Source: Naegleria gruberi
Lineage: Eukaryota
Direction: 5' to 3' (one strand)
Length of the DNA stretch: 64,000 bases
Assembly: GCA_000004985.1 (NCBI GenBank)
Contig: GG738905.1
Made by a program: the position numbers and the translations under genes. This document shows, piece after piece, positions 14,162 through 62,890 of the stretch (its first letter is position 1; each line of letters starts with the position of its first letter). The notes below the pieces were generated by a model, which had not been told where the DNA came from, did not search any database, and was given only the letters and a program-made list of their open reading frames with translations.

Positions 14162-15136
14162 ATGGCATCACTTGAGGAACAGCTTTTACTTCGTCGTCAA
14201 TTAATCTTCTCCAAAGTTACGGAAAAGATTGGACCTTCCCTTCCCAATGATGATAAAAAAGAGGCAAATTTAATGATTCGGGTGGCATGTTTCGTCTATA
14301 AAAAAGATGGAGCCGATCGACATTGGAAAGACCTGTTGCAAGCCTTGACTGATACCTCACATCCTAAGGAGAGAATTATTAAGAAAGATGATCACAGTGA
14401 TGGACATGAGATGATGCCTCACTTGTTGAATTTGAAAAGAGTTCAATTTGAATGTATTCAATTTGATCCGAATGATATTGGAAATGGTCAATTGATAACT
14501 AAAAAGATACATGTTGTGTTTTGTGGAGGAGGATTGGGTCCTGCACATGCTAGTCAATTGGGAGGAAAAGGAAAGAGGGAAATTATCAAGTTCTTGGAAC
14601 AGGGAGGAGGTTATATTGGATGTTGTGCTGGAGCTTATTTAGCATGTAGGTAATCTGTGATATTTATTGAATATTCTAATATTGAATGGAATGAAAAATA
14701 GGCACAGCGTATGATGCTTCTTTAAGTTTCTGGAATTATGGATTGATTGACTATCATATTCTTGATTTGTCAATGTGAAAACACTCCACAAGGTTCTGAT
14801 ATTCTCGTTTCAAACTTGAACGACTCTATTAGAAATGTCTATTACAGAAATGGACCTCTCTTTACACCAGTTACAGATGAAAAACTTCGTGAAAAGTATT
14901 CGGGAAACAAGATTGGACAATCGATGGTTTTACAAAATTTCAAACAAGAATTCACAAAGAAGAAGGTTGATTTGGAATCCAAATCAGTCATGATCGATAC
15001 TCCCTCCATAATTGCCAATCAATATGGTCAGGGAAGGGTTGTGGTGTTTAGTGCACACCCAGAAGCTTCAGATGAACAGGTTAGAAATGAATTCAAATGT
15101 GCCTTTGTTTGGGCTTCCTCTCAATTGATTTATTGA
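14162..15136 (+). CDS. class-I glutamine-amidotransferase-like / BPL_N-like fold protein; two exons (about 14162-14645 and 14793-15136)
   Basis: VVFCGGG ... GGGYIGCCAGAYLAC resembles the nucleophile-elbow region of GATase1-like domains. Two same-strand ORFs are separated by an AT-rich segment with candidate GTAGGT donor at 14646 and acceptor cacaag at 14792 that keep the frame. The family call is tentative. Confidence 0.45.
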
Positions 15137-15146
15137 AAACACAATC

Positions 15147-15719
15147 TTAATGATTTTTTGGTAGTGTAACTGCCAATGTGATAATGACAATGAGGATGGA
15201 CAGACAGACATTGAATGCCACCAATGACCAAAATGTTGATTTTGCCAATTGTCCATATTTTCTTGCTCCTCTCACTTCATGACTTGAATATTTAAAGACA
15301 AACATGTATGGAATGCAAGCAAAGAAGGGTGTAAAGATGAAGAATACTAGAAATGAAATGACAGTAGCAATCAAAAAGGCATTCTTTGCCTTGTCAGTTT
15401 GATGTTTCTCATGAAACCAATTGTTGGTTCCAGCATTTGTGTAGGGATGTTCTTGTCTATTCACAAGAGGAGTTGAGGTTGTTTCAGCTGTTGTAGTATA
15501 AACCTGCTGTTGTTGCTGAGGAGGAATCAGATTTTGTTTCAAATTCTCATGGAATGGATGCGATGTATAATGAATCGCTTGAGGAGGTGGAGGGATTTCT
15601 CCATTACTTGGATAGGCAGAATTACTGTACGAAGTAGAATTGACTGTTGCTTGGTAATTGGTTGGATTCATTTTTTCAAAATTTGTTTCTTCAATTTGAA
15701 ATGATCTTATTTCAAACAA
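15147..15719 (-). CDS. small membrane protein with Pro/Gln-rich N-terminus and two C-terminal TM helices (CD225/dispanin-like topology)
   Basis: ORF with hydrophobic segments FLIATVISFLVFFIFTPFFACIPYMFVF and FWSLVAFNVCLSILIVIITLAV; the true start is probably the internal MNPTNYQ. Confidence 0.4.
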   Translation of the reverse strand: MFEIRSFQIEETNFEKMNPTNYQATVNSTSYSNSAYPSNGEIPPPPQAIHYTSHPFHENLKQNLIPPQQQQQVYTTTAETTSTPLVNRQEHPYTNAGTNNWFHEKHQTDKAKNAFLIATVISFLVFFIFTPFFACIPYMFVFKYSSHEVRGARKYGQLAKSTFWSLVAFNVCLSILIVIITLAVTLPKNH

Positions 15720-15999
15720 TTGCCTCTTTTGGAATTGTTACAAAATTGGAAATGTAATATTTTTACATTAAAATACTCTCAAAGAAAAAGGTTTATTTTG
15801 GAGTAATTTTGGTCGTACGAAGGAAGAGGAATAAACGTAGTGGTTGTCGTCGTAGTGGAGGAAACGAAAGGATTAAGATTCCAAAGTTCCTGCGCTTATA
15901 AGCTTTTATTCATTAATTTTCCAAATTGATTTTGAAATGATATTTGAATTAGGGGCATTGTGATGGATAATGATGGACACACATGTGGTTTACATGTGG

Positions 16000-16549
16000 T
16001 TAGTCTTGAATGGGTTGATAGGCATGTCCTTGAGAATCATAATATTCAGGAGGAGGAGAATCTTCATATGCTGGAGGTTGTGTAGTGGTGCTCAATTGAC
16101 CACTTCGTGTTTTCTCAGGAATTATTCCAAAATCTTCAGCTAACAACTCAATTGTGAGTGTTCCCTTTTGTGCATTGTGCAAATTCAAAGTCAATTGTTG
16201 AGCTATTCCTTTTTCCAAACTGTCCAATGACACTGATGCCTTGCCAATCACATCATTCACCAATCGATCATAATCAAAAACTTCAAAATAAATAGTTTCT
16301 ATCTCAGGATTAAAATTTGAAGGTAAATCCATGTGGAAAGTGGCATTCCAATCTGGATTGCAATTCTTCTTGATGACTTCTGTTCGTAATTGAATGGTAC
16401 CGAGTTGAATTTTGACAAATGGATCTTTAAACAATTAATGGAATGTTAAACAAGATAATTTGATGAGAAATAAACTTACCAGAAGTGCCTCCTCGATCCT
16501 TTGCATCTAAATCTCGGCAGTTAATAACTGTTAATTTGAGTTTTGGCAT
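16000..16549 (-). CDS. C2-domain protein, paralog a: join(16549..16480, 16424..16000); C2 followed by a short Pro-rich tail with PPxY motifs
   Basis: Exon 1 encodes MPKLKLTVINCRDLDAKDRGGTS. Donor G|GTAAGT, acceptor tttaaag. Exon 2 encodes DPFVKIQLGT...NCNPDWN...FEVFDYDR...[12 protein letters not shown], then QPPAYEDSPPPEYY. Confidence 0.8.
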
Positions 16550-16624
16550 TTTTTTGATTGATATGACGCTTGACTTTTGTGAAAAAGGATACATGTCGGA
16601 CTAATAAGGTTTATAGTTCAACAT

Positions 16625-17467
16625 TTATTGATTATATTGTGGTGGATAACTTGGTGGTGGTGGTTGAGAATAACCAATTGGTGGATACCCTTGAAAATTT
16701 TGATTTGGATATTGAGATTGATCTGAATATTGAGGTGGTGGTGGTTGACATTGAGATTGATCTGAATATTGGGGAGGAGGAGGTTGTGAATTGAATGAGT
16801 TATCATTTTGAGGAGGAGGTTGATTAGGAATTGGGTATTGAGGAGGTGATACAGATGATTGATTATTCGAATAGTATTGAGGTGGAGGAGGAGATGAATT
16901 GCTGCTATCGTATTGTGGAGGTGGAGGAGTGGGAGGTTGTGTGTTAAAATTATTAATATTCGAATGATTATAATTCAATTGAGTGGCACTTCTGTTGTGA
17001 ACAGATTGTTGTGTTGGCAGAGTTGGTGGTTTAATTTCTGGAATTATTCCAAAATCCTCAGCTAGTAACTCAATGGTGAGTGTTCCTTTGTGTGCATTGT
17101 GTAAATTCAATGTCATTTGTTGAGCTATTCCTTTTTCCAAGTTGTCCAATCGAGCAGATGTCTTTCCAATCAAATCATTTGATGAAAATCTATCATAATC
17201 ATAAACATCAAAGTAAATACTTTCAAATTCTGGATCAAATTTTGCTGGCAAATCCAAATTAAAAACAGCATTCCAATCTGGGTTACAATTCTTCTTGACA
17301 ATTTCAGTTTTAACTTGAAGAGTGCCAATTTTAATTTTGACAAATGGGTCTTTAAAGAGTCATGATGATTTGATATTATGTCAACAATTTAACCTACCTG
17401 AAGTGCCACCCATATCTTTGGCATCTAAATCCCGAGCATGAATAACTGTGAGTTTGAGTTTTGGCAT
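16625..17467 (-). CDS. C2-domain protein, paralog b: join(17467..17398, 17349..16625); C2 followed by a long P/Q/S/Y-rich tail
   Basis: Exon 1 encodes MPKLKLTVIHARDLDAKDMGGTS. Donor GTAGGT, acceptor ctttaaag. Exon 2 encodes DPFVKIKIGT...NCNPDWN...FDVYDYDR...[12 protein letters not shown]. Confidence 0.8.
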
Positions 17468-17582
17468 TTTTTTAAAGTTGACTTGGTTTGTGATTGATGT
17501 TTAGATTCCATTATTGAAATTACAATAAATTCATTGATAAGCATTAAATTGCTAGTTTAAATTACAAATTTATAGTACACAA

Positions 17583-18663
17583 TTATTGGAATGGTTGTGG
17601 AGGATATCCCATTTGAGGTGGGTAACCCATTTGAGGTGGGTAACCCATTTGAGGTTGTTGAGGGTAACCTTGCATTGGCTGTTGTGGATAGCCTTGCATT
17701 GGTTGTTGAGGATAACCTTGCATTGGTGGTTGTTGTGGATAACCTTGTTGCATTTGAGGGTAACCTTGCATTGGTGGTTGTTGTGGATATTGTTGATAAC
17801 CCATTTGAGGTTGTTGTTGGGGATAACCTTGCATTGGTTGTTGTTGAGGGTAGCCCATTGGTTGTTGAGGATATCCATAACCTTGCACTCCCTGTGGTTG
17901 ATAACCCATTGGTTGTTGTTGTTGTTGTTGTGGATAACCATAACCTTGAACTGGTGGACCTTGATTGAGTGGTTGTGATTGAGTAACTGATTGAGTTGGC
18001 ATGGCTTGTCCAAAATCTTCAGCCAACAATTCCACAGTCAAAGTACCCAACTTGGAATATTGCAATTTGAGATCGACACGTTGTGGTTGTCCCTTATATA
18101 AAGTTCCCAAAGCAACTGTTGCCTTACCAATAATATCATTTCCTCCAAAACGATCATAATCATAAACTTCAAAGACAGCACTTTCACTGGCTGGATTAAC
18201 AGAAGGAGGCAAATCAAAGAACAAGGTTGTGTTCCATGTTGGATTGCAATTTTTGCTGATGTGATCAGTCTTTCTTTGAACGGAACCAATTGTTACTCTA
18301 ACATATGGATCTAAATAGTATTAATTAATTAATATATAATGATGATGATAATGAATGATTATTAATATATATATGAATAATATTTGTTAACCAATCACAA
18401 AATCATTGTTAATGTACAAAACAATATTAAATATATTAAAATCGATTGTACATTGTAGTTGAATAACACAAATAATATAAGAAATATTTCATTGTTATAA
18501 GAAATTCATCATCATGGATGTAACATCACCAAAATTCATCATCATCATCACATGTAAAATTAAATCATCATCAAATTCGCATCATCAACCTACCAGAAGT
18601 ACCACCAACATCCTTTCCTTCCAAATTTCTAGCAGAAATAACAGTAATCTTGAGTTTGCCCAT
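17583..18663 (-). CDS. C2-domain protein, paralog c: join(18663..18594, 18310..17583); C2 followed by a QGYPQQP repeat tail
   Basis: Exon 1 encodes [23 protein letters not shown]. Donor GTAGGT and a 283-bp AT-rich intron. Exon 2 encodes [27 protein letters not shown]...FEVYDYDR...[10 protein letters not shown], then (Q)GYP repeats. Confidence 0.8.
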
Positions 18664-18881
18664 TCTTTGTGTGTCTATTTTTTGCTAAAGTTTCCATTCC
18701 GTGTTGCTTGTTTGAGAAACTCATCGCGTTTCATGTGTTTTATAAATAAGAATGGATCGCTCATGTTCATGTGTGTATTTTTACCGCCAAAAAAAACTAC
18801 AATATGAACTTTGTTTTATTCCTTACCTCTGGGGTTGATGATGGGAATGTAAAATTATAATTTAATATAACAGTTAGTTTA

Positions 18882-19253
18882 TTAAGTTTGACTTGGATGA
18901 GGAGAACCTCTCAAGTGAGGAAGAATAGTATGATGTTGGGAATGATGAGGTTTGAAATGAGAAATAATTGGTCTGATTATATGATGAGAACCAAATACTT
19001 TGAATGGTGGTTGGACGGTATCACCCGATTGTTGTGGTGTAGGAATGGAAATTTGTGGCAATTGTTCTTGTTGGACGGTATCACCTGATTGTTGAGGGGT
19101 TGGAATGGAAACTTGTGGTAATTGTTCTTGTTGGACAGTATCGCCTGATTGTTGTGGAGTTGGAATGGAAATTTGTGGAAGTTGGCAATCAACTAAACAA
19201 TTGGCAATAATGAAGCATGAAATGAATAGCAAGAGAATGAGAAATTTAGTCAT
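18882..19253 (-). CDS. small secreted repeat protein (123 aa): signal peptide plus three 24-aa tandem repeats QLPQ(I/V)SIPTPQQSGDTVQQE
   Basis: N-terminal MTKFLILLLFISCFIIANC. Three near-identical 72-bp DNA repeats at about 18990-19205. Confidence 0.5.
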   Translation of the reverse strand: MTKFLILLLFISCFIIANCLVDCQLPQISIPTPQQSGDTVQQEQLPQVSIPTPQQSGDTVQQEQLPQISIPTPQQSGDTVQPPFKVFGSHHIIRPIISHFKPHHSQHHTILPHLRGSPHPSQT

Positions 19254-19556
19254 CTTTTTTGAAAATGTTACTAATACCTTTTCATTCTTCCTGAATTTGA
19301 ATCATTGTAATGCCAATGAACAATGTTAAATTGATATGTTTCGTTTAAGGATATTTACAGTTTAAAGATTTTTCCCAAGAGAGGATTTGGACACTTTGGT
19401 ATTTTCAAGCAGATGGTAATGTTATATTTATATAGTAATTCATCTTTTGTGAAGTTAGAAATCCAACTGTTTGTGACCTCTGCGTGTTAGAAGAAGAAGG
19501 AGAACTATATAAGGAAGATAATGTATTATTTACACAATTTCAAGAAGAAATTCAAA

Positions 19557-20325
19557 TTATTGATATGGTGGATATCCTTGTTGAGGAGGATATTGTTGTG
19601 GTGGATATTGTTGTGGGTATCCTTGTTGTGGTGGAAAACCACCTTGTTGTGGGTATCCTTGTTCAGGAGGATAGCCATATCCTTGCATTGGAGGTTGTCC
19701 ATAGTATGGTTGTTGTGGATATCCTTGTTGTGGTGGATACATTTGTTGTTGAGGGTAACCTTGTTGAGGGTAACCTTGTTGAGGATATCCTTGTTGTTGT
19801 GGTGGAAAACCACCTTGTTGTGGATTAGTTGTGGTTTGAGTAGTAGTTGGTATGGCTTGTCCAAAATCTTCTGCCAACAATTCAACAGATAAGATTCCAT
19901 TCCTTGAGTTGGCCAACCTTAAATCAACTTTTTGAGCGTGTCCTTTGTAAAGTGTTCCCAAAGCAATTGTTGCTCTTCCAATCAAGTCAGAAGATCCCAA
20001 ACGATCATAATCAAAAACTTCAAAAGAAGCTGATTCTGTGGCTGGGTTGACACTTGGTGGCAAATCAAAGAAGAGAGAAGTATTCCAAGTTGGATTAGTA
20101 GTCTTGGTCAAGTGGTCAGTCTTGTGTTTAATTGTTCCAACAGAAACAACAACAAAAGGATCTATTCAGTGTTTAAAATATGATATTATTATTCAGTAGG
20201 ATTATACAGATGTAAGTGTAATGATCAATGAAATTGTTTAAATAGTAACACCTACCTGATGTACCTCCAATATCCTTTCCTTCTAAATCACGTGCAGAAA
20301 TGATGGTTACTTTAAGTTTGCCCAT
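19557..20325 (-). CDS. C2-domain protein, paralog d: join(20325..20256, 20161..19557); C2 followed by a QQGYPQQ repeat tail
   Basis: Exon 1 encodes [23 protein letters not shown]. Donor GTAGGT, acceptor ctgaatag. Exon 2 encodes [27 protein letters not shown]...FEVFDYDR...[10 protein letters not shown]. Confidence 0.8.
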
Positions 20326-20669
20326 TGTTGATGATTGTTAAATTAATTGATGAACAGTGTTTGAGGTGTTTTTTTTGTTTTTAGAAATTATTGGTTTTGC
20401 AAAAGTTCCAATTTTAAATCTCAGAACGAATATTGGCAAGTTCAAAAAAGTTGCTCGCCCAATTAGATCGCCATCAAATTAAACAATTATGGACTTTTGG
20501 GTAAATAACAAAAAATTGAAAGCAAGGTCAAGGGCATGCTTCATTGTAACAAAACTGTAGTCCTTGAGAATTATTAATAATATAATTATTATTTTTATGT
20601 TAGAAATATTCAAAATTAAGGTATTTCCAAAAAAGTTAAGCACAATTATCAAACAAAAACAGAAAAAAA

Positions 20670-21911
20670 ATGTTCAAACACCAAGCTCAAACATTTCCCG
20701 CCAATTTTCATCAAGATGATGAAAGCGCACTAGATGATATTGAAACAACACTCTCAATACATAATAATCCATCTTGTTTTAATCATCATCAATTATTGTC
20801 TTCCGATACCATCACAATCATTGCAAGTTTCTTGCCAATTTCCGATTGGTTTTCAATGAGTGCTGTGAATGAGTGTTGGTTTCAAGCTATGCATCACGGA
20901 ATGAATCATGAATGGAAGAGAATTTATTATAAGGAATGGAAATTGGATCGAATCATTGCTCATCATGACCATTTGAAACTTTATGATGAAAATGATTTAA
21001 AGATGGAAAAGGGAAAATTTAATCCTGGTAAAGGAGAAGAAGAAGAACAGCACGATGAGGAAGATAATGATCATGATGATGATTTGAGAGGTGATGAGGA
21101 GGGAACAGTGGATTGGATGAGAGTGATTCAATACTATTTAAACAAATTACCAATCAAGACAGAAACTGTGGAGAGAGGAGAATGTTTAAACTTTTGTGAG
21201 GAGAGGAATAAGAGAATGGAATGGGAAAGTCCAATAATACAGAATGGAAAGGGAATTGTGGAGGGAGAGAATAGTTTTAGTATCTTTCAATTCTCGTTTC
21301 ATGTATTGAATAGAATGAAAGAGTCGATTGAGAATTTCAAAAATATGGACGAAAGCTTGGAAGATCTGCAGCTGGAACTATTTAAACAATATAGAGTTTG
21401 TCTATTTATGGAATATTTGAGTTTGGGATTTAGACCTAGTGTAGTTTCAGATGTAGTTAATATTTGGGAAGGAATTTATGATAATGAACCCATTCTAACA
21501 TTACCTCTAGTTTCCTTTCTCTTTATACTACATCAAGACAATCCAATAGAAATCATGGAAGAGTTCATTCAGGAGGAATATGGTGAAATCTCCAATTGGA
21601 TCTACGTTTCACTTTCTCAATGTCCACAAGATCGATTAGGATTCTCTCTAATTTTGAAAGAATTGGATCTCACTAACTTTTCCTATGATTGGAATGGAAA
21701 GCTCCCTTGGTACCATCAAACTGATATCAATGAAAAGAATTTCCCACTCTACCTTGGAGTTTCCCAACATTTAGCTGATTATGAAACAAGCTACTACATG
21801 GATGATTATGACACCTCTCCATGTCGAGTCTATCATTTGAGTATTTCATGTGAATTATTGGCAACTCATCATGTCAAATTGTACAGAGAGGAAAAGATAA
21901 TGAATTATTAA
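20670..21911 (+). CDS. hypothetical protein with N-terminal F-box-like motif and an acidic E/D-rich stretch (413 aa)
   Basis: ORF; TITIIASFLPISDWFSMSAVNECWFQAMH resembles an F-box. Confidence 0.5.
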   Translation: MFKHQAQTFPANFHQDDESALDDIETTLSIHNNPSCFNHHQLLSSDTITIIASFLPISDWFSMSAVNECWFQAMHHGMNHEWKRIYYKEWKLDRIIAHHDHLKLYDENDLKMEKGKFNPGKGEEEEQHDEEDNDHDDDLRGDEEGTVDWMRVIQYYLNKLPIKTETVERGECLNFCEERNKRMEWESPIIQNGKGIVEGENSFSIFQFSFHVLNRMKESIENFKNMDESLEDLQLELFKQYRVCLFMEYLSLGFRPSVVSDVVNIWEGIYDNEPILTLPLVSFLFILHQDNPIEIMEEFIQEEYGEISNWIYVSLSQCPQDRLGFSLILKELDLTNFSYDWNGKLPWYHQTDINEKNFPLYLGVSQHLADYETSYYMDDYDTSPCRVYHLSISCELLATHHVKLYREEKIMNY

Positions 21912-22047: not shown

Positions 22048-22737
22048 ATGACAATTTCTAAACCACCTCCATCTTCAGGTAATAATAATACCTCAACAGG
22101 AGCAGTAGAAGAATCCATTATTTTGCAACAAGCTTTATATTGTATAGAAGATAATTATGATGTGATGATGGCCTCACCAATCACGCTCCAACTCATCTCA
22201 TCAATTTGTACCAATATTGTGACTCATCCGAACGAGGAAAAGTTTAGAAAGATTAAAATTGCCAATCCAAAGTTTAATGACTTTGTGATGGGCGTTGAAG
22301 GAGCTGTAAATTTATTAATGTTGTGTGGATTTGAAATTGATGATAGTGGAGAGTATATTATTCTCAAGAAGGAGAATTTTGTTGCTAGTGATTTGAAGGA
22401 TTTGATTGCTGCCATTGATATCAAGACAAAGAATAATTTAACTACACCACAAAAGCCAAGTAGTAGTAGTTCAGCATCATCAAGTGTTGTGAAACCAACT
22501 GGTAGCAGCAGTTCAGTTTCCGATGCTGAAATAGAAGAGAGAAAGAAGAAAATGATGGAAGAAAAGAAAAAGATTCAAGCTGAAAAGGACAAAATCAAGC
22601 AACAATTGCTTGCTGATAAGGAGGAAAGAAAGCATTTGCCAACTGGTGTTTGCTCTAGAAAGACTACCAAACCAAATAGCACTTCTAAAAAGACTTTTAG
22701 AGACATTGGCGTCGAGCTCAACAAGGGAGGAGGCTGA
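22048..22737 (+). CDS. PUB (PNGase/UBA-or-UBX) domain protein with K/E-rich coiled-coil C-terminus
   Basis: ITLQLISSICTNIVTHPNEEKFRKIKIANPKFNDFVMGVEGAVNLLMLCGFE matches the PUB-domain core. Confidence 0.55.
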   Translation: MTISKPPPSSGNNNTSTGAVEESIILQQALYCIEDNYDVMMASPITLQLISSICTNIVTHPNEEKFRKIKIANPKFNDFVMGVEGAVNLLMLCGFEIDDSGEYIILKKENFVASDLKDLIAAIDIKTKNNLTTPQKPSSSSSASSSVVKPTGSSSSVSDAEIEERKKKMMEEKKKIQAEKDKIKQQLLADKEERKHLPTGVCSRKTTKPNSTSKKTFRDIGVELNKGGG

Positions 22738-23083: not shown

Positions 23084-24037
23084 TTACAAAGTACCGAATT
23101 GAACATAGACAGCTCTAAATTCCCATATTCTCTTCAATAAGAGACCTGCAAAACCAACAAAGATAGCACCAATCAAGACAACAACAAGAGCCCACCAGTC
23201 AAATCCGATATGAGTTCCAAATTGAACAGCAAAATCCAAAACCAAATAAATTCCACTGAATGGAACAAGTGAAACAATACTTGTAAACAACCACATACAA
23301 GCCAATACTAGAATAGTGTTGATATAATTCTTGTGAGTTTTCAAGAGACCAAAGAAGAATTCTTTCCTTATGATCATTATGCATGATATTAAACCACAAG
23401 TAGCTCCAAACAAACTCATCAATGCAGCAATTACCAAACAAAAAACACTAATTCCACTAAAAAGACTCACTTGATCATCTTCCAAATATCCGTTATCTTC
23501 ATAATAATCCTCATTCTTATCATACTTTGCATGATAATCTTGCACAAAATCAATAGTCAACTTGATTTCAACAAATGACAAGATTAAAAAGATAACCGCA
23601 TAAACGAAATTCAAAATTGCTGCAATCAATGGAATTAATACCCTGATAGGTTTTGGATCTCCAGCACCTCCCACAACACTACTACTAATATCACTCTTTT
23701 CAATTGAAACTCTAATATTATCAACTGATGGTTCGGCAATTGGCTCTGTTCTTTCAACTTTTTCATCAACCGTTTCTTCATCATTAATTTTCTCCTTTTT
23801 TTCATGATAATGATCTTCGGAGGTATTATTTACTTCTTCTTCATGATGAGAAGATGATGTTGTTTCTTGTTGTATCATTTCATCTTCCAATTCTATTGTT
23901 TCTTCGCGATAGACAGGTATTGTTGTTTGTTCTTCCTCTTCATGTTGTTCTTCATGTTGTTGTGATGATTCTTCGTTAATCACCTCATCAACCATATGAC
24001 TCACAGTGTTGTTGTTGTTATTTTCATTATTGGACAT
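23084..24037 (-). CDS. hypothetical membrane protein: acidic N-terminal half and about 4 C-terminal TM helices
   Basis: ORF with hydrophobic helices IRVLIPLIAAILNFVYAVIFLIL, LFSGISVFCLVIAALMSLF and others. Confidence 0.45.
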   Translation of the reverse strand: MSNNENNNNNTVSHMVDEVINEESSQQHEEQHEEEEQTTIPVYREETIELEDEMIQQETTSSSHHEEEVNNTSEDHYHEKKEKINDEETVDEKVERTEPIAEPSVDNIRVSIEKSDISSSVVGGAGDPKPIRVLIPLIAAILNFVYAVIFLILSFVEIKLTIDFVQDYHAKYDKNEDYYEDNGYLEDDQVSLFSGISVFCLVIAALMSLFGATCGLISCIMIIRKEFFFGLLKTHKNYINTILVLACMWLFTSIVSLVPFSGIYLVLDFAVQFGTHIGFDWWALVVVLIGAIFVGFAGLLLKRIWEFRAVYVQFGTL

Positions 24038-61099: not shown

Positions 61100-61632
61100 G
61101 GGGTTTGGGTTTGGGGTTGGGGTTGGGGTTGGGTTGGGTTTGGGTTTGGGTTTGGGTTTGGGTTTGGGTTTGGGTTTGGGTTTGGGTTTGGGTTTGGGTT
61201 TGGGTTTGGGTTTGGGTTTGGGTTTGGGTTTGGGTTTGGGTTTGGGTTTGGGTTTGGGTTTGGGTTTGGGTTTGGGGTTTGGGTTTGGGTTTGGGTTTGG
61301 GTTTGGGTTTGGGTTTGGGTTTGGGTTTGGGTTTGGGTTTGGGTTTGGGTTTGGGTTTGGGTTTGGGTTTGGGTTTGGGTTTGGGTTTGGGTTTGGGTTT
61401 GGGTTTGGGTTTGGGTTTGGGTTTGGGTTTGGGTTTGGGTTTGGGTTTGGGTTTGGGTTTGGGTTTGGGTTTGGGTTTGGGTTTGGGTTTGGGTTTGGGT
61501 TTGGGTTTGGGTTTGGGTTTGGGTTTGGGTTTGGGTTTGGGTTTGGGTTTGGGTTTGGGTTTGGGTTTGGGTTTGGGTTTGGGTTTGGGTTTGGGTTTGG
61601 GTTTGGGTTTGGGTTTGGGTTTGGGTTTGGGT
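61100..61632 (+). repeat. telomere-like hexamer array (TTTGGG)n, about 88 perfect units, with degenerate TTGGGG/TTGGG units at the proximal (left) junction; continues into the gap
   Basis: directly visible: ...gagGGGTTTGGGTTTGGGGTTGGGGTTGGGGTTGGGTTGGGTTTGGG(TTTGGG)n; the G-rich strand reads 5'->3' toward the gap. Confidence 0.9.
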
Positions 61633-62890
61633 NNNNNNNNNNNNNNNNNNNNNNNNNNNNNNNNNNNNNNNNNNNNNNNNNNNNNNNNNNNNNNNNNNNN
61701 NNNNNNNNNNNNNNNNNNNNNNNNNNNNNNNNNNNNNNNNNNNNNNNNNNNNNNNNNNNNNNNNNNNNNNNNNNNNNNNNNNNNNNNNNNNNNNNNNNNN
61801 NNNNNNNNNNNNNNNNNNNNNNNNNNNNNNNNNNNNNNNNNNNNNNNNNNNNNNNNNNNNNNNNNNNNNNNNNNNNNNNNNNNNNNNNNNNNNNNNNNNN
61901 NNNNNNNNNNNNNNNNNNNNNNNNNNNNNNNNNNNNNNNNNNNNNNNNNNNNNNNNNNNNNNNNNNNNNNNNNNNNNNNNNNNNNNNNNNNNNNNNNNNN
62001 NNNNNNNNNNNNNNNNNNNNNNNNNNNNNNNNNNNNNNNNNNNNNNNNNNNNNNNNNNNNNNNNNNNNNNNNNNNNNNNNNNNNNNNNNNNNNNNNNNNN
62101 NNNNNNNNNNNNNNNNNNNNNNNNNNNNNNNNNNNNNNNNNNNNNNNNNNNNNNNNNNNNNNNNNNNNNNNNNNNNNNNNNNNNNNNNNNNNNNNNNNNN
62201 NNNNNNNNNNNNNNNNNNNNNNNNNNNNNNNNNNNNNNNNNNNNNNNNNNNNNNNNNNNNNNNNNNNNNNNNNNNNNNNNNNNNNNNNNNNNNNNNNNNN
62301 NNNNNNNNNNNNNNNNNNNNNNNNNNNNNNNNNNNNNNNNNNNNNNNNNNNNNNNNNNNNNNNNNNNNNNNNNNNNNNNNNNNNNNNNNNNNNNNNNNNN
62401 NNNNNNNNNNNNNNNNNNNNNNNNNNNNNNNNNNNNNNNNNNNNNNNNNNNNNNNNNNNNNNNNNNNNNNNNNNNNNNNNNNNNNNNNNNNNNNNNNNNN
62501 NNNNNNNNNNNNNNNNNNNNNNNNNNNNNNNNNNNNNNNNNNNNNNNNNNNNNNNNNNNNNNNNNNNNNNNNNNNNNNNNNNNNNNNNNNNNNNNNNNNN
62601 NNNNNNNNNNNNNNNNNNNNNNNNNNNNNNNNNNNNNNNNNNNNNNNNNNNNNNNNNNNNNNNNNNNNNNNNNNNNNNNNNNNNNNNNNNNNNNNNNNNN
62701 NNNNNNNNNNNNNNNNNNNNNNNNNNNNNNNNNNNNNNNNNNNNNNNNNNNNNNNNNNNNNNNNNNNNNNNNNNNNNNNNNNNNNNNNNNNNNNNNNNNN
62801 NNNNNNNNNNNNNNNNNNNNNNNNNNNNNNNNNNNNNNNNNNNNNNNNNNNNNNNNNNNNNNNNNNNNNNNNNNNNNNNNNNNNNNNNNN
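61633..62890. other. assembly gap (1258 N)
   Basis: run of N; ORF-track entries 61071-63953, 61088-62983, 61096-63012 and 61134-62948 are artefacts of translating N and hexamer repeats. Confidence 1.

Follow-up and report, generated by a model that had tools for sequence, protein, structure and literature searches.

We asked what kind of protein is encoded by a row of four related genes in the amoeba Naegleria gruberi, and what their C-terminal tails might do. The genes, here called paralogs a to d, are the four C2 genes at positions 16000-20325 of the window, that is, of the 64,000-nucleotide stretch of contig GG738905.1 (assembly GCA_000004985.1) that was analyzed as a whole. An initial annotation, made from the letters alone, had read them as Ca2+- and membrane-binding adaptors, and this general idea stood. 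The four paralogs are probably small peripheral-membrane adaptors that consist of an N-terminal C2 domain and a disordered Pro/Gln/Tyr-rich tail and are switched by Ca2+. In such a protein, Ca2+ that rises in the cytosol would be bound by the C2 domain through five conserved aspartates of its loops 1 and 3, and the Ca2+-loaded domain would dock onto acidic phospholipids, e.g. phosphatidylserine. The unstructured, multivalent tail would thereby arrive at the membrane and, by way of short Tyr-Pro motifs, recruit cytosolic partners there. The gene structures, the identity of the C2 domain and its Ca2+ ligands, the predicted fold and disorder, the motif enrichment, the order of duplication and the purifying selection are established below.

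The C2 assignment made in the initial annotation was borne out by a profile search. All four proteins matched the Pfam C2 family (PF00168) with E = 9e-25 to 5e-26 and 87-91 bits (gathering cut-off 22), and the matches extended from profile positions 1-2 to positions 98-101 of 104. A profile of the four domains in turn matched solved C2 structures from ferlins, synaptotagmins, Munc13, PKC, NEDD4, plant CAR proteins and Trichomonas (9bkw). The domain spans residues 1 to ~124, and a-d contain no other Pfam domain. The coordinates and the peptide signatures given earlier for the two pairs were also correct (MPKLKLTVI in a and b, MGKLK in c and d). In a BLASTP comparison with rat synaptotagmin-1 (Syt1) C2A, identity was 38% over 95 residues (E = 3e-18). 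D18, D24, D74, D76 and D82 (D81 in a) aligned with the aspartates of ALD, SDP, YD, FD and HD that coordinate Ca2+ in loops 1 and 3 of Syt1 C2A. These positions are invariant among a-d and thus, by alignment, the five Ca2+-ligand aspartates of Syt1 C2A are conserved in the Naegleria proteins.

The predicted structure agreed with this assignment. An AlphaFold2 model of d, built from a 6-sequence alignment, had eight strands with a predicted local distance difference test score (pLDDT) of >90 over residues 1 to ~128, and a pLDDT of <50 over residues 132-221, i.e. the tail. With confidence, the model predicts an eight-stranded beta-sandwich C2 fold in d. When this model was compared to the PDB with Foldseek, only C2 domains were returned (E 4e-11 and weaker, target-normalized TM-score up to 0.87). 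The matches over all strands were of type II: plant SYT1 C2A, intersectin-2, Munc13 C2B, CAR4, cPLA2, PKC-epsilon, PLC-delta1 and C2 domains of Trichomonas vaginalis. The type-I domains (Syt1 C2A, PKC-alpha) aligned over ~106 columns only. As the whole-domain matches are type II, we infer from the model a type-II topology for the Naegleria C2 domain.

We then asked how the tails differ. They are 41-141 residues long with 17-27% proline; the tail of b is rich in P (27%), Q (16%), S (14%) and N (12%), that of c in Q (35%), P (23%), G (13%), Y (12%) and M (9%), and that of d in Q (32%), P (25%), Y (15%) and G (14%). Disorder was modeled for the tail of d and is assumed for those of a and b. Two PPxY motifs had been noticed in a alone, and both are present (PPAY at 140, PPEY at 148; 2 versus 0.10 in composition-preserving shuffles, P = 0.002), but b carries seven that had been missed (7 versus 0.86, P < 5e-5). 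In the tails of c and d there are none. Instead, GYP occurs 12 times in c and 8 times in d, compared to 0.53 in the shuffles of each, within units that read (Q/M)GYP(P)QQ. Thus, the cluster holds two classes of tail, PPxY (a and b) and GYP(P)QQ (c and d), and because of this split the two pairs probably recruit different partners. The repeats are also visible in the DNA, as 18-, 24- and 48-nucleotide units in c (the 18-nucleotide unit is 100% identical over 2.7 copies), a 15-nucleotide GYPQQ unit in d and a 39-nucleotide unit in b.

By analogy, the closest characterized counterparts are EhC2A and EhC2B of Entamoeba histolytica, paralogs that are 76% identical and in which a C2 domain (~residues 1-100) is followed by a C-terminal proline-rich region (PMC7197785). 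As in a-d, there is a single N-terminal C2 domain, then the proline-rich region and nothing else. The C2 domain of EhC2A and EhC2B binds phosphatidylserine as well as Ca2+ (1:1, Ka about 10^5 to 10^6 per M); the transcription factor URE3-BP is tethered to the plasma membrane by EhC2A, whereas the proline-rich tail of EhC2B binds and nucleates actin, at pseudopods and phagocytic cups (PMC7197785). The two systems differ in that the PPxY and GYPQQ tail classes belong to Naegleria, whose proteins are known from sequence, and in that Entamoeba is a member of Amoebozoa while Naegleria is a member of Discoba. Of the 38 sequence matches with E <= 1e-8, most of which are unnamed entries, none bore an Entamoeba name.

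Several points weigh against the adaptor model. The resemblance to EhC2A and EhC2B is architectural and may have arisen by convergence. In paralog a, one residue is deleted from Ca2+-binding loop 3. That the aspartates are conserved is no proof of Ca2+-dependent lipid binding, which, like any tail partner, we infer from sequence. A Pfam scan of the four tails alone returned no family at E <= 10, including the XYPPX repeat (PF02162), and no partner can be named. Finally, a literature search found no experiments or expression data for these genes; nor did it find any paper on their locus tags or accessions, or on this Naegleria family, in which a proline-rich stretch accompanies the C2 domain.

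What could the tails do at the membrane? It is possible, although somewhat unlikely, that they act like the tail of EhC2B and, once docked, nucleate actin by binding G-actin or profilin and so help to form the pseudopods or food-cups of this crawling, phagocytic amoeba. Naegleria amoebae move by actin, and the tail of b contains five PPPP runs. Moreover, a-d share the architecture of EhC2B, which in vitro binds and nucleates actin only if its proline-rich C-terminal region is present (PMC7197785). This likeness is one of architecture. On the other side, the tails of c and d are rich in Gln, Gly and Tyr and are not polyproline, and no tail has a run of at least five prolines, which is typical of profilin ligands. 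In a regular-expression search, such runs were absent from a-d altogether, as were P(S/T)AP, YPxL and PPLP.

The PPxY class raises a second alternative, in which a and b, much as Ndfip or arrestin-related adaptors do for Nedd4-family ligases, would recruit a WW-domain protein (e.g. a ubiquitin ligase) to membranes when Ca2+ rises. PPxY is the group-I WW ligand, and the enrichment of this motif in a and b together with its absence from c and d speaks for such a role. The initial annotation had named the motif as a WW-ligand type, and as a motif this is right, but the usual reader seems to be missing: reports of C2-WW-HECT (Nedd4-like) ligases are confined to Apusozoa and Opisthokonta and do not include Excavata (PMC3673628). 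In addition, PPxY may be a by-product of the expansion of a PPPPQY unit, the 39-nucleotide DNA repeat of b. We regard this alternative as unlikely. The ends of the tails bear on where the motif came from. The extreme C-terminus of b (..QGYPPIGYSQPPPPSYPPQYNQ) is GYPP-like, and GYPP(Y) endings recur in d, in L004 (a metagenomic orthologue of d), in P0008 (another metagenomic relative) and in both Naegleria fowleri proteins. Taken together, these sequence ends suggest that the GYPP-type tail is ancestral and that the PPxY arrays are derived. The further proposition that the arrays of a and b arose from such a tail, in a lineage from which Nedd4-type WW ligases are reported to be absent, and, if functional, form an independent Ca2+-gated PPxY-reader system in Discoba is quite doubtful; were it true, one membrane-docking module would have been re-targeted to different partners purely because short repeats in its tail turned over.

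For c and d, the initial annotation had drawn an analogy to the proline-rich ligands of ALG-2 and other penta-EF-hand proteins. In this alternative, c and d would bind an ALG-2-like protein via their GYPQQ repeats and so couple two Ca2+ sensors at the membrane. There is a precedent of a kind in Entamoeba, as URE3-BP is an EF-hand protein. The architectural analogue EhC2A recruits it to the membrane as Ca2+ rises (PMC7197785), and the composition and GYP periodicity of the c and d tails resemble the proline-rich regions of annexins A7 and A11, which are 'type 1-like' ALG-2 ligands (PMC5037681). The ALG-2-binding motifs (ABM) themselves have been defined as PPYP plus YP four residues apart for ABM-1 (PYP or PxYP is allowed and the spacing is possibly variable) and as PxPGF for ABM-2 (PMC5037681). 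The patterns PPYP.{2,6}YP, P.YP.{2,6}YP and P.PGF had no match in a-d, so neither ABM-1 nor ABM-2 is present in c or d and the analogy is compositional only, although these rules were drawn up for mammalian ALG-2 and might not apply in Naegleria. ALG-2-like binding by c and d is thus rather improbable.

Alternatively, the Q/G/Y/P-rich tails of c and d could be prion-like and self-associating, so that Ca2+-dependent docking would seed a condensate or plug, e.g. at membrane wounds. With 32-35% Gln, regularly spaced Tyr and Gly and, in d, predicted disorder, the tails have a composition that seems to resemble that of the oligopeptide repeats of yeast Sup35. Their 23-25% proline disfavors amyloid, however, and the conservation of motif spacing between orthologues fits ligand motifs at least as well; we consider self-association very unlikely. 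The adaptor model, with tails that carry short motifs for cytosolic partners, is the reading that we retain.

Next, we asked when the four genes arose and whether they are changing fast. In a neighbor-joining tree of the C2 domains, a and b grouped with 100% bootstrap support, and c and d grouped with N. fowleri P0006 and L004 (76%); within the latter group d paired with L004 (100%) and c, weakly, with P0006 (56%). This sequence tree supports the duplication order ((a,b),(c,d)) and thus the two rounds of duplication that had been proposed at the outset. The description of the family as rapidly diversifying did not survive. Synonymous divergence (dS) among the paralogs was 0.8-2 (0.87 for a-b, 1.21 for c-d, saturated for the other pairs), which means that the duplicates are old, and the ratio of nonsynonymous to synonymous change (omega) in the C2 domain was 0.11-0.34, so that, as judged from their codons, they are under purifying selection. 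Between d and its close orthologue L004, omega was 0.14 in the C2 domain and 0.07 over the aligned tail codons, while 18 of the 101 tail columns were repeat-unit insertions or deletions. The low omega and the indels indicate that the family is conserved and that the tails evolve as repeat units are added and lost, not by fast substitution. The cluster illustrates how a docking domain that is itself conserved can acquire new outputs when the repeats of its disordered tail turn over.

The copy number differs in the pathogen N. fowleri. At the syntenic locus, a single c/d-type gene lies between the orthologues of window genes 23084-24037 and 15147-15719, which implies either expansion in N. gruberi or reduction in N. 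fowleri. The second of these flanking genes (15147..15719, minus strand, just downstream of a) encodes a protein without a Pfam match, in which two hydrophobic stretches that are predicted to span the membrane come after a Pro/Gln/Tyr-rich N-terminus; its orthologue (L001 11354..11860) adjoins the N. fowleri C2 gene, so this adjacency is conserved. At the N. fowleri locus, nothing corresponds to the segment between the C2 cluster and the other syntenic flank. Within this segment, a gene on the plus strand (22048..22737) encodes a 229-residue protein that matches the PUB domain (PF09409, E = 3e-18); domains of this type bind p97/VCP.

Relatives that share both the last strand, LT(V/I)EL(L/V)AEDF(G/S), and a P/Q/Y-rich tail were found in N. 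fowleri, in Willaertia magna and on metagenome contigs; beyond these, the matches were generic C2 domains. A HMMER profile search of 1.84 billion representatives, with the exon-2 translations as queries, returned mostly multi-C2 proteins (ferlin-like or E-Syt-like) and was informative only for a few short single-C2 relatives. The C-terminal parts differ strongly across the family, as a comparison of P0084, P0158 and the array shows. When an a/b-type orthologue was sought in N. fowleri, only P0158 came up, which is divergent (43% identity) and falls outside both N. gruberi clades; its tail is Met/Pro/Gln/Thr-rich (PMMTQ, MQPMQPMPMQ) and ends in GYPPYGQPGYPPYGGGGFY. In P0084 (L005 533..1450), a Thr/Gln linker is followed by ~130 residues that are not of low complexity.

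All of this depends on the gene models, and we therefore asked whether these might be annotation artefacts or decaying duplicates, with exon 1 unused or some of the copies pseudogenes. Reading the reverse complement of 15900-20400 for start codons, we found four two-exon genes, all on the minus strand, with ATG codons at 20325 (d), 18663 (c), 17467 (b) and 16549 (a); exon 1 was spliced to whichever acceptor gave the longest reading frame. The predicted proteins have 164 (a), 264 (b), 265 (c) and 224 (d) residues, and the features are listed in the table below. In all four genes exon 1 ends in ...TC(A/T)G and is followed by GTA(G/A)GT, and the introns are GT..AG, phase 1 and A+T-rich (21-27% GC); the base composition of the window is about 34% G+C, as is typical of an A+T-rich eukaryotic genome. 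In each gene the intron interrupts the Asp24 codon (G|AT); the first beta-strand and the larger part of Ca2+-binding loop 1 therefore lie in exon 1. The first exons had been described as identical, which is true of their length (70 nucleotides each) but not of their sequence (47-55 of 70 nucleotides identical in pairwise comparisons).

Public annotation gave a mixed answer. By exact protein look-up, model b is identical to EFC38773.1 (NAEGRDRAFT_73554) and model d to EFC38776.1 (NAEGRDRAFT_73557), so the splice of the 70-nucleotide exon proposed initially is also used in the public models of these two. Both accessions, together with EFC38775.1, lie on one 290,827-nucleotide scaffold with 'predicted protein' as their sole label. 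The public model of a, EFC38772.1 (NAEGRDRAFT_73553), is truncated to 110 residues, and no protein with the sequence of the C2 domain of c was present in a collection of 5.8 billion proteins. The N. gruberi annotation therefore needs correction at two genes, a, for which the model is too short, and c, which is either missing or mis-modeled. These two defects, along with the lack of expression data in the literature, could be taken as signs of an artefact. Against this, the four reading frames are intact with canonical splice sites, and in exon 1 alone the proportion of synonymous differences among the paralogs (pS 0.57-0.73) exceeds that of nonsynonymous differences (pN 0.10-0.24). Without exon 1, moreover, the C2 domain would lose its first strand and Ca2+ loop 1.

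The exon and its intron also recur at other loci of the family, and the position of the intron is conserved at four of these. N. fowleri P0006 (FDP41_010191) has a 70-nucleotide exon 1 followed, in the same codon, by a 145-nucleotide GT..AG intron. In L004, exon 1 is again 70 nucleotides long and encodes 23 of 23 identical residues despite 8 nucleotide changes, with an intron of 51 nucleotides. A ~50% identical metagenomic relative (L005/P0084) has a 70-nucleotide exon and a 47-nucleotide intron, although the called gene model missed the exon. Since the structure is found in N. fowleri, L004 and L005, it is ancestral to the family and not specific to the array, and we consider it extremely improbable that the models are artefacts or decaying copies. 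The structure has been lost elsewhere: metagenomic L002/P0008 is intronless, and W. magna P0117 lacks the exon-1 intron and has instead a 51-nucleotide intron near the border of C2 domain and tail. The N. fowleri orthologue has an extra 80-nucleotide intron (L001 10517..10596) exactly at this junction, after ELLAEDFG, which none of the four N. gruberi genes has; the W. magna intron sits a few codons before this position. The C2/tail boundary is therefore a recurrent intron site, which would ease the exchange of tails.

Features of the C2 gene cluster, in window coordinates; C2-completing part and tail together make up exon 2
Feature	Position	Strand	Remarks
Paralog a exon 1	16480..16549	-	70 nt; MPKLKLTVINCRDLDAKDRGGTS + first base of Asp24 codon
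Paralog a intron	16425..16479	-	55 nt, phase 1, GTAAGT..AG, 22% GC
Paralog a exon 2, whole	16424..16000	-	
Paralog a exon 2, C2-completing part	16126..16424	-	ends at ELLAEDFG
Paralog a tail and stop codon	16000..16125	-	41 aa; 2 PPxY (PPAY, PPEY)
Paralog b exon 1	17398..17467	-	70 nt
Paralog b intron	17350..17397	-	48 nt, phase 1
Paralog b exon 2, whole	17349..16625	-	
Paralog b exon 2, C2-completing part	17048..17349	-	
Paralog b tail and stop codon	16625..17047	-	140 aa; 7 PPxY, mostly PPPPQY
Paralog c exon 1	18594..18663	-	70 nt
Paralog c intron	18311..18593	-	283 nt, phase 1, 21% GC
Paralog c exon 2, whole	18310..17583	-	
Paralog c exon 2, C2-completing part	18009..18310	-	
Paralog c tail and stop codon	17583..18008	-	141 aa; 12 GYP
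Intervening gene, EFC38775.1	18882..19253	-	123 aa; between c and d; unrelated, outside the C2 family
Paralog d exon 1	20256..20325	-	70 nt
Paralog d intron	20162..20255	-	94 nt, phase 1
Paralog d exon 2, whole	20161..19557	-	
Paralog d exon 2, C2-completing part	19860..20161	-	
Paralog d tail and stop codon	19557..19859	-	100 aa; 8 GYP; predicted disordered

The four genes lie on the same strand, have a common intron position and phase, and form one clade with respect to outgroups, as expected of tandem duplicates. The array proposed in the initial annotation is thus real but is interrupted by the unrelated gene between c and d, and tblastn across the window found no further C2 copies or pseudogenes. 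The product of the intervening gene has a hydrophobic, signal-peptide-like N-terminus, three 20-residue repeats QLPQ(I/V)SIPTPQQSGDTVQQE (in the DNA a 60-nucleotide unit, 2.8 copies, 89%) and a His-rich C-terminus, and is without a Pfam match.

The spacers within the cluster are short, with 75 nucleotides from the stop codon of b to the ATG of a (16550..16624) and 115 nucleotides from the stop codon of c to the ATG of b (17468..17582); AAAAAA directly precedes the ATG of both a and b. Promoters and 3' ends must be very compact here or overlap upstream tail-coding sequence, and read-through or co-transcription across the short c-b-a spacers is conceivable. The intron of c is 3-6 times as long as those of the other paralogs and contains four C-box-like RTGATGA motifs. 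We considered a snoRNA in this intron and rejected it, as the ceN106 match was weak (Rfam, E = 0.63, 21.7 bits versus a gathering cut-off of 60) and there was no CTGA D box; an Rfam scan of 15000-21000 gave only two matches, both below threshold (E 0.6-0.7). Far from the cluster, at 61101..61632 of the window, ~89 copies of the hexamer GGGTTT (99% identity) start with slightly irregular GGGGTT units and run directly into a 1258-nucleotide gap of N (61633..62890). Since this telomere-like array lies inside a scaffold, it may mark a chromosome end across which scaffolds were joined, or it may be an interstitial telomere-like tract.

Finally, we asked how the Naegleria proteins compare to other known systems. 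Parabasalids have 'XYPPX repeat family / C2 domain' proteins (PMC9610433; PDB 9bkw, 9bky), which shows this architecture to be widespread among protists. The C2 domain of the T. vaginalis 'XYPPX repeat family protein' (9bkw) matched our profile with E = 2e-13, and the model of d superimposed on it with a target-normalized TM-score of 0.78 at 26% identity. The 9bkw annotation implies a C2 domain with xYPPx repeats, and b, c and d do contain pentapeptides that read xYPPx to the letter (e.g. GYPPQ in c, QYPPQ in d). Nevertheless, at ~25% identity it is no nearer than many other C2 domains, and the C2 domain is the only part of that protein that has been solved. We found no paper on the function of the Trichomonas protein.

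The initial annotation had also compared the family to SRC2-like proteins of plants. Plant SRC2 combines a C2 domain with a Pro/Gly/Tyr-rich tail, but the comparison found no specific link in sequence: in our word-seeded search none of the 38 matches with E <= 1e-8, most of them unnamed, was an SRC2-named protein, and the only named plant match was a CAR10 protein (E = 1e-11). Plant structures were among the best structural matches (SYT1 C2A, 7as6 and 7atp; CAR4, 5a50; identity 23-30%), but CAR proteins lack such a tail and have an extra insertion. The architecture common to plant small C2 proteins and the Naegleria proteins is probably convergent. Similarly, annexins A7 and A11 resemble c and d in having a GYP-rich Pro/Gly/Tyr low-complexity region on a Ca2+-dependent phospholipid-binding module, but this module is the annexin core, the proline-rich region is N-terminal, and their PxYP..YP is absent from c and d. 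The C2A domain of Syt1 is nearly the same as the Naegleria domain in GGTSDPYV and VYD(F/Y)DRF..(H/N)DIIG; the Naegleria domain, however, starts at the position of the second strand of Syt1, its last strand is unmatched in the sequence alignment, and its proteins, unlike synaptotagmin-1, have neither a transmembrane anchor nor a second C2 domain.

Thus, the cluster adds members to a known kind of protein, with an architecture already known from other protists and from plants; it neither opens a new category nor resolves a long-standing question. Modestly noteworthy are the split of the tail classes by duplicate pair, the difference in copy number from N. fowleri, the ancient 70-nucleotide exon and the two annotation defects. 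If the adaptor model is correct, Naegleria has a small set of Ca2+-switched adaptors like the Entamoeba proteins that control actin at the phagocytic cup and a Ca2+-regulated transcription factor.

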